DNA of 24,779 nucleotides, from the UHGV virus genome UHGV-0038615, one strand, 5' to 3'. The notes beneath the pieces are model-generated. The model worked only from the letters and a program-made list of their open reading frames with translations. It was not told the origin of the DNA and made no database searches. Shown piece after piece: positions 14,245 through 14,964 of this stretch. The stretch comes from a virus. The position numbers and the translations under genes were made by a program. Each line of letters starts with the position of its first letter. Position 1 is the stretch's first letter.

Positions 14245-14964
14245 ATGAGTGAAATCTCTTTCGTATTTGCGCGATCATTTATTGATGCTTCACCATTCAT
14301 TCTTGCAATGGCAATAGCTATAGCTATTCTGCGTGGTCCTGTGGTGAAATTCATTTCACGGAACTTACTTGATTCAGGCAAGGACAGGTATAATGCGGAA
14401 ACTAAAGATAATAACACAAAGAAGAATGGTAACACTGAAAGCCAACCAATGGCAGATGAGAAAATAAAATTTCATATTCGTAAAATATTGCTAAACGAGA
14501 GTGGTCAAAAATATTTTGATGCGTACAGAGAAAATGTCGAAAGTTTAATCGAGAAAAGACAAAAGGAATTAGCCAATTACGCTTTAACAAGCGTGTTTTC
14601 TGAAAATAAAATTGAAGAGGCGATCACTGAATCATTGCATGATACAGTGGAGGACACTACCAAAAAATTAATTAGAGAGAGTGAGCAATTCAAGATTTTA
14701 GAGAAGGAAACAATTGAAAAGTTAAATTTAATAAAAATATCATCATTTTTGGAGCATCTGGAGAAAGAATATGATGCAACTCGAAGTACAAAGGCTCTGA
14801 TGAGTAACATGTTTATTTTGGTGAATGTTTTTTATTTTTTTTGGCCTGCTGGGTTTTCTTATATTTGGGCAAAACATAATAACCACACCGTCTATTTATT
14901 TAGCATTATCGTTTTCCTATATTGGGTTAGGTGCGTTTGTTGTTTACATGATAAAGTTTTGTAA
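14245..14964 (+). CDS. AT-rich cargo ORF: membrane-anchored protein with long charged/coiled-coil-like region; likely the 5' part of a gene disrupted at a T6-A-T8 tract
   Basis: GGGA RBS before ATG 14245; N-terminal hydrophobic helix FILAMAIAIAIL; K/E-rich central region; reading frame changes at 14828-14842. Confidence 0.45.
   Translation: MSEISFVFARSFIDASPFILAMAIAIAILRGPVVKFISRNLLDSGKDRYNAETKDNNTKKNGNTESQPMADEKIKFHIRKILLNESGQKYFDAYRENVESLIEKRQKELANYALTSVFSENKIEEAITESLHDTVEDTTKKLIRESEQFKILEKETIEKLNLIKISSFLEHLEKEYDATRSTKALMSNMFILVNVFYFFWPAGFSYIWAKHNNHTVYLFSIIVFLYWVRCVCCLHDKVL

Follow-up and report, generated by a model that had tools for sequence, protein, structure and literature searches.

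A one-base insertion in a T run as the probable cause of a split reading frame in the S-V cargo gene of a P2-like prophage of Escherichia coli

Background

Some pseudogenes of E. coli have arisen by addition of a base in an A/T run that splits an open reading frame intact elsewhere, and their wild-type products can in principle be restored at the level of RNA or the ribosome (Baranov et al. 2005, PMC1088944). Indeed, slippage-prone A/T runs restore some broken genes, and selection against slippage of RNA polymerase is evident in many genomes at runs of about nine A or T, sometimes eight (PMC1088944). Slippage at homopolymers in E. coli produces mainly insertions, deletions being very rare (PMC5574713), and non-programmed frameshift suppression measured in this species is 1-10%, with 5% for a +1 case in rpoB (PMC10861913). 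Here we consider a T6-A-T8 tract in UHGV virus genome UHGV-0038615, a stretch of 24,779 nt analysed as a whole and referred to below as the window. The tract resembles the homopolymer pseudogenes of E. coli in both the nature of the lesion and the possibility, in principle, of restoring the wild-type protein. However, the usual threshold is about 9 nt, and the 8-nt run here just reaches it or falls short of it; rescue would take a one-base deletion in RNA or a +1 slip of the ribosome.

Phase-variable contingency genes with homopolymeric tracts are known in Haemophilus, Neisseria, Campylobacter and Helicobacter. As in these genes, the homopolymer considered here is situated in a coding region, in-frame and out-of-frame alleles are observed in close relatives, and the protein is an accessory one, apparently associated with the envelope. 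On the other hand, only two tract lengths occur here, the ON state accounts for 97%, and the tract is not conserved among orthologues.

One more system for comparison is provided by the same prophage. Near the end of the tail chaperone gene E (18469-18783) there is a heptamer TTTTTTG at 18756, and an E' ORF is situated at approximately 18816-18938; we take this heptamer to be the expected conserved site of -1 programmed frameshifting of P2 E/E' (T_TTT_TTG). It is a T-rich slippery run as well, but the E/E' site is conserved across P2-like phages, works in the -1 direction and provides two needed products, whereas the S-V tract is lineage-specific and needs a +1 shift.

The site between the genes S and V is one of three recognised moron regions in P2-like phages (PMC6823313). 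In P2 it is occupied by orf30, and the locus described here is similar to orf30 in being a lone, AT-rich, non-essential insert at the same S-V position, variable among P2-like phages. The lengths are different: 261 bp in P2 orf30, 741 bp in the R18C ORF and 987 bp in the gene considered here. In the hotspots of P2, defence genes reportedly seldom occur as pseudogenes (PMC13586616).

Prophage setting

The window covers essentially a whole P2-like prophage of E. coli, with genes encoding the integrase (161-1207, minus strand), gpA (3148-5520) and the portal protein (9360-10367, minus strand). After the portal gene the order is lysis genes, then R, S, V, W, J and so on to D and ogr. The left border of the cargo site is formed by the gene of a P2 gpS-like tail completion or virion morphogenesis protein (13491..13931, plus strand), an identical copy of which is annotated as 'phage virion morphogenesis protein' in the comparison locus L001 and which has the PF05069 (Phage_tail_S) domain in L006-L013. 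The right border is the P2 gpV-like baseplate spike gene (15664..16305, plus strand, coordinates mapped by offset), annotated as 'phage baseplate assembly protein V' in L001 and containing PF04717/PF18715 in L006-L013. The flanks are approximately 74% identical to P2 R-S at the DNA level, and the insert has no match to P2. The GC content of the focal locus is 0.33-0.37 against 0.55-0.60 in the flanks. In its position between S and V, its atypical composition and its replacement by orf30 in P2, the locus agrees with the description of an S-V moron of P2-like phages, and the gene is a single-gene AT-rich cargo of this (orf30) site.

A dyad TGT-N12-ACA (15563..15580, plus strand) about 85 nt upstream of V is a candidate Ogr-dependent late promoter element; from its position and the known P2 late promoters we presume that it is of the P2 type. 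Dyads of this form are not more frequent in the window than expected by chance (6 found, 4.8 expected), and it is possible that this one marks the right edge of the cargo cassette, a rather weak prediction. A scan of the cassette for promoters and terminators yielded nothing above chance.

At the right end of the window there is a CyaR/RyeE sRNA gene (24709-24779, minus strand, 80 bits) that belongs to the host flank and is cut by the window end; because of this truncated gene the prophage is considered to be integrated next to cyaR. Compared with the intact relatives L006-L009 and L013, two blocks are missing: approximately 4.0 kb at 11657-11667 (the 5' part of the terminase gene P, then O, N, M, L and the start of X) and approximately 3.8 kb at 17844-17845 (the end of I, then H, G and the start of the sheath gene FI). 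Since these two blocks are absent, the prophage is defective. Both deletion junctions have only short or imperfect microhomology, and both are shared with the ENA scaffold L010.

The tract and the reading frames

Read directly from the window, the tract is TTTTTT-A-TTTTTTTT with the exact span 14828-14842, in agreement with the initial annotation. The two ORFs described there do overlap in different frames, by 140 nt (14825-14964) when computed. ORF1 (14245-14964, plus strand, frame 1) encodes 239 aa, and its ATG is preceded at a distance of 7 nt by a Shine-Dalgarno-like AGGGA (14233..14237, plus strand). ORF2 (14825-15232, frame 2, that is, +1 relative to ORF1) encodes 135 aa and also starts with ATG. 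As an independent gene ORF2 was rejected: the candidate GGTGA abuts its ATG, leaving no usable spacing, and no split orthologues exist.

It had been suggested that one extra T in the T8 run would fuse the ORFs. In silico, such an addition leads to stop codons almost immediately, whereas deletion of one T (T8 to T7), or addition of two, produces a single ORF of 328 aa, close to the expected fused size of about 330 aa. The tract of the window thus has a T in excess instead of lacking one. The product obtained after deletion of one T is identical to WP_001290067.1.

Five complete E. coli chromosomes contain this region between the P2 genes S and V at 99.9% identity, with T6-A-T7 in place of T6-A-T8. 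In each of them it is annotated as one 987-nt CDS encoding the 328-aa 'hypothetical protein' WP_001290067.1, with the RefSeq start at the ATG of ORF1 (14245). Base-by-base comparison demonstrates that the extra T is the sole difference between the window and these genomes over 1,061 nt (1,060 nt in the intact allele). The first mismatch is at 14842 when the sequences are compared from the left and at 14835 from the right, these being the ends of the T8 run with the single inserted T (14835..14842, plus strand). The window contains five runs of at least eight A or T, all within AT-rich cargo.

ORF1 consists of the authentic codons 1-199, encoding the N-terminal transmembrane (TM) helix, a charged linker, a long helical region and the first half of TM2, followed by 40 out-of-frame codons and a stop. 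The 3' part of the gene is in the +1 frame (14843..15232, plus strand) and contains codons 200-328 and the stop codon, that is, the rest of TM2, TM3 and the conserved C-terminal domain.

Orthologous genes

A search of 5.8 billion proteins produced 23 close homologues with 60-99% identity and length 314-333 aa, all from Enterobacterales. Every orthologue found is a single ORF of this length, which bears out the earlier reading of the two ORFs as one gene split by a frameshift. A consistent split at the same tract length, named at that time as evidence against it, was not observed in the orthologue comparison. The alignment of the homologues is unbroken across the junction in one frame, with Y197, F198 and G200 invariant, and the intact orthologues pass from the frame of ORF1 into the frame of ORF2 exactly at the second T run, that is, where the frame switch had been placed. 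Residues from approximately 166 to 321 are almost invariant among the close homologues. An exhaustive profile search yielded 88 cluster representatives with a common core at residues 166-320 or so, and the family thus comprises approximately 88 clusters at 50% identity.

The dN/dS ratio relative to the 89%-identical relative L015 is 0.12 for the whole gene and 0.039 for codons 200-328; relative to the Pectobacterium orthologue L022 the respective values are 0.106 and 0.052. Most of the invariant residues of the family are also within codons 200-328. Because of these ratios and the unbroken alignment, the frame of ORF2 should be considered the continuation of one gene and its most constrained part.

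The tract itself behaves differently. T7 is present in L001-L005, L013, L014 and L019, and T8 in the window, L006-L010 and L012. The T6-A-T7 sequence is limited to the E. coli allele and the 89%-identical relative, and in orthologues with identity of 64% or less (L016-L018, L020, L021) the run is broken by C, which appears in the corresponding Phe, Ile and Tyr codons (TTC, ATC, TAC). Judging from these sequences, the T run results incidentally from T-rich codons in a Phe-rich membrane helix and is not a conserved element.

The gene occurs in the S-V site of P2-like prophages (L014-L016), in a small non-P2 island of Pectobacterium (L022) and next to an integrase (L025). This distribution suggests a self-sufficient accessory gene maintained by selection. 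In Enterobacter ludwigii (L023 / L024, positions 5001-5993) an intact 330-aa orthologue lies inside a heavily decayed P2 remnant consisting of LysC, R, S, truncated V and truncated J, with host genes at both sides. This suggests that in Enterobacter the cargo gene was kept by selection after the death of the prophage.

Alleles in public collections

Allele counts were obtained by exact-sequence look-ups of the products in public collections. The intact T7 product (328 aa) was found on 713 contigs, with 255 more carrying it as a 330-aa call, and in 1,172 index blocks. The T8 product of the window (239 aa, P0025) was found on 17 contigs and in 30 index blocks. The same look-ups gave no records for the products of T4, T6, T9 and T10 at the main tract. 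Other disrupted E. coli alleles (P0033, P0037, P0137-P0139) were each seen on one or two contigs. These are the extension of the first run from T6 to T7, that is T7-A-T7 (239 aa, two contigs), and, with one contig each, T6 to T5 at 15000-15005 (253 aa, P0037), A7 to A6 at 15198 (350 aa), A7 to A8 at 15198 (346 aa) and a premature stop after codon 165 (165 aa, P0033). In total, indels at each of the other four 6-7 nt runs of the gene are present on 0-2 contigs; the excess of T8 over them points to clonal spread.

The T8 allele comes from several NCBI isolate assemblies, several SRA (Logan) runs and one ENA metagenome scaffold, at least seven distinct samples. Carriers of T7 and T8 have almost the same prophage backbone. 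The T8 carriers have private SNPs between them and no secondary decay of the gene. The T8 prophages of L006-L009 are otherwise complete; in the window and L010 the prophage has the two deletions, and the lineage of the window is further distinguished by two additional SNPs. Thus T8 is probably a real, inherited allele of several independent isolates and one metagenome. One or few mutation events with clonal inheritance would fit these data better than noise or free switching, the prophage SNPs being too few to exclude recurrence.

It is possible that the same data underlie both the window and the ENA scaffold L010. One more T8 carrier, L011, has an additional G>A substitution at the position equivalent to 14823, 5 nt upstream of the tract (GGTGAATG -> GGTAAATG), and a second private SNP at 16865.

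The protein and the truncated product

Hydropathy analysis of the intact protein yields TM segments at approximately 10-38, 184-213 and 215-239, and the frameshift falls inside the second of them. The AlphaFold2 model built with an alignment of 74 sequences is all-helical (pLDDT 78, pTM 0.58), with an N-terminal helix and a long hairpin H147-208 / H215-269, whereas the model from 24 sequences is poor (pLDDT 60). By the model and hydropathy together, the intact protein is predicted to begin with a TM helix, to continue through a long helical region into a TM hairpin, and to end in a C-terminal domain of high conservation. TM1 and TM3 are each followed by a basic stretch, which by the positive-inside rule suggests that the helical region and the C-terminal domain would be cytoplasmic.

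The T8 product retains residues 1-199, goes out of frame halfway through TM2, at codon 200, and gains 40 unrelated but still hydrophobic residues. Half of the hairpin is missing from it, together with the complete conserved C-terminal domain. The lost part contains nearly all invariant residues: F231, R242, E251, E290, H295, P296, Y297 and E298. Given the absence of this conserved region, T8 is most likely a loss-of-function allele.

Search for function

No domain could be assigned to the intact protein. Pfam gave nothing above the threshold for this protein and 74 relatives (DUF2852 has 19.6 bits at the cut-off of 22.5), and PADLOC and NCBIfam gave no matches above the threshold for the protein and its relatives. 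The best PHROG match, phrog_10554 of unknown function, is sub-threshold (E 0.019). A profile search against the PDB sequences found only insignificant coiled-coil matches, such as ATP synthase subunit b with E 0.04, and Foldseek searches of PDB and BFVD produced nothing with E < 0.1. The focal gene has no DNA or protein match among 50,697 sequenced phages. Peptide-pattern scans of genome contigs yielded matches in two scans, none of which was confirmed by tblastn.

Two distant relatives are of some interest. The protein P0050 (322 aa) has a sub-threshold similarity to Orbi_NS3, the orbivirus NS3 viroporin (22.6 bits, cut-off 27). In P0103 (550 aa) the conserved core composed of the TM hairpin and the C-terminal part (residues 390-542) is fused to an N-terminal peptidoglycan-acting, MepK-like L,D-endopeptidase domain (Peptidase_M15_2, 4e-49). 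The fusion and the NS3 match are weak hints at an envelope- or membrane-acting role. As a working guess, the intact protein could be a prophage inner-membrane factor that benefits the lysogen or the prophage, e.g. by excluding other phages.

Interpretation of the T8 allele

The most probable explanation, to which we assign a probability of about 0.8, is that one gene has been broken by a real, heritable one-base insertion changing T7 to T8, and that T8 is an ordinary inherited loss-of-function allele, not a designed switch. The insertion would have arisen by replication slippage in the Phe-rich, T-rich stretch encoding TM2. Translation of the T8 allele would leave the frame at codon 200, read 40 unrelated codons and stop, and the allele would then be inherited within a sublineage of the prophage, clonal spread being preferred to recurrent origin. 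The locus has the usual attributes of a pseudogene, namely an uninterrupted orthologous ORF, a defined correctable indel and coding constraint downstream of it.

The product could be partially restored from the T8 allele. As derived from the sequence, a +1 slip of tRNA-Phe on either UUU (UUU_U) re-pairs perfectly, with GGC in the A site, and such a slip, as well as loss of one U in the mRNA, produces ...VFYFFGLLGF..., identical to the wild type. The -1 heptamer T_TTT_TTT, an efficient slippery sequence, leads into the third frame, with a stop after 13 codons, and no element stimulating frameshifting was identified. Transcriptional rescue is disfavoured because it needs a deletion and slippage in E. 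coli mainly inserts. Thus low-level, incidental rescue of the T8 product is possible but probably minor, and nothing suggests selection for it.

The initial annotation had offered a pseudogene, a sequencing indel or a slippage-prone tract with stochastic expression of the full-length protein, and the evidence favours the first of these most. The window does differ from the intact allele by a single base in a homopolymer, a classic error site of several platforms, and the only 100% match to the window is L010, which may come from the same data. However, the identical T8 product occurs in at least seven distinct samples, in many independent assemblies with private SNPs on their contigs, the symmetric T6 was never found, and other 6-7 nt runs have indels on 0-2 contigs only. 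It is thus unlikely that the sample truly has T7 and the eighth T is an error of sequencing or assembly. Two genuine, separately translated overlapping genes are extremely improbable. Both ORFs are long (239 and 135 aa), ORF2 starts with ATG, and T8 assemblies are annotated by pipelines with two proteins (P0025 and the 67-aa P0040), but conservation is continuous in a single frame across the junction, none of the orthologues is split, and the 135-aa product is called on one contig only.

Another possibility is that the tract has a role of its own. Homopolymers of this length (7-8 nt) are more mutable than ordinary sites, and the presence of T7 and T8 in near-identical prophages, the second slippage allele T7-A-T7 on two contigs and the lack of secondary decay in T8 carriers would all be expected of a contingency tract that turns a costly membrane protein ON and OFF in lysogens by slipped-strand mispairing. 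At the same time, a run of 7-8 A/T nucleotides is short for a contingency locus in mismatch-repair-proficient E. coli. The OFF state makes up only about 2.5% of the records, there are no records of T6, T9 or T10, and orthologues do not keep the tract, which is broken by TTC, ATC or TAC at identity of 64% or less. The other inactivating alleles are of unrelated types (a nonsense codon, indels at other runs), which suggests ordinary mutational loss. Thus reversible phase variation is improbable. Still less probable is programmed recoding, in which +1 frameshifting or transcriptional slippage would give a regulated full-length protein beside the 239-aa product. The exact wild-type sequence can be obtained by a +1 slip on UUU_U or loss of one U, non-programmed suppression reaches 1-10% in E. 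coli (PMC10861913), and A/T-run slippage does restore some broken genes (PMC1088944). However, the two-frame arrangement is not conserved, every orthologue being a single ORF; many genomes select against slippage at runs of about 9 nt (PMC1088944); a deletion is needed, whereas E. coli slippage inserts (PMC5574713); and there is neither a detected stimulatory element nor a live frame behind the -1 heptamer. A purpose-built slippage switch for stochastic full-length expression is not supported either: the tract is unconserved, T6, T9 and T10 are missing, and rescue needs a deletion. One could also combine the two mechanisms, so that the T7/T8 run would switch reversibly at low frequency, with incidental rescue by +1 slips of the ribosome, and keep a costly or toxic membrane-acting protein off in most cells of some lysogen lineages; this is doubtful too. 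Under such a switch the protein would possibly be a new single-gene phage-exclusion factor in the S-V hotspot.

If the broken-gene explanation is accepted, the two 'hypothetical proteins' of the T8 assemblies should be annotated as one broken gene. T8 would be a minority loss-of-function allele of a conserved, uncharacterised prophage cargo gene, and little depends on it as such. It could be used as a ready-made natural null control. The gene family itself may merit functional testing, as a solo gene of S-V sites and other mobile contexts under strong purifying selection.

Other accessory genes

Between gpA and the portal gene, the old/tin hotspot is occupied by an AT-rich cassette of two genes (6521-9264). 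Their products are an ABC-type ATPase of 542 aa (AAA_15/DUF3696) and a partner of 370 aa. The ATPase is similar to the PADLOC families NsnB (5e-55), PDC-M55A (7e-46) and AriA (7e-31), and the partner has a weak match to PDC-M55B (2e-4). The cassette is likely an anti-phage system. The AT-rich stretch between ogr and the right end contains a gene (23616-24467) whose 283-aa product is a trypsin-like protease carrying a SEC-C motif at the C-terminus; it is similar to the protease component of PADLOC RT-Protease_XI (7e-21).

Directly behind gpA there is a gene for an ASCH/DUF3850 protein (5484-5984). In the non-P2 island of Pectobacterium, an ASCH protein gene (4375-4776 in L022) immediately precedes the orthologue of the focal gene. 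The occurrence of ASCH genes in the window and next to this orthologue may be a coincidence.
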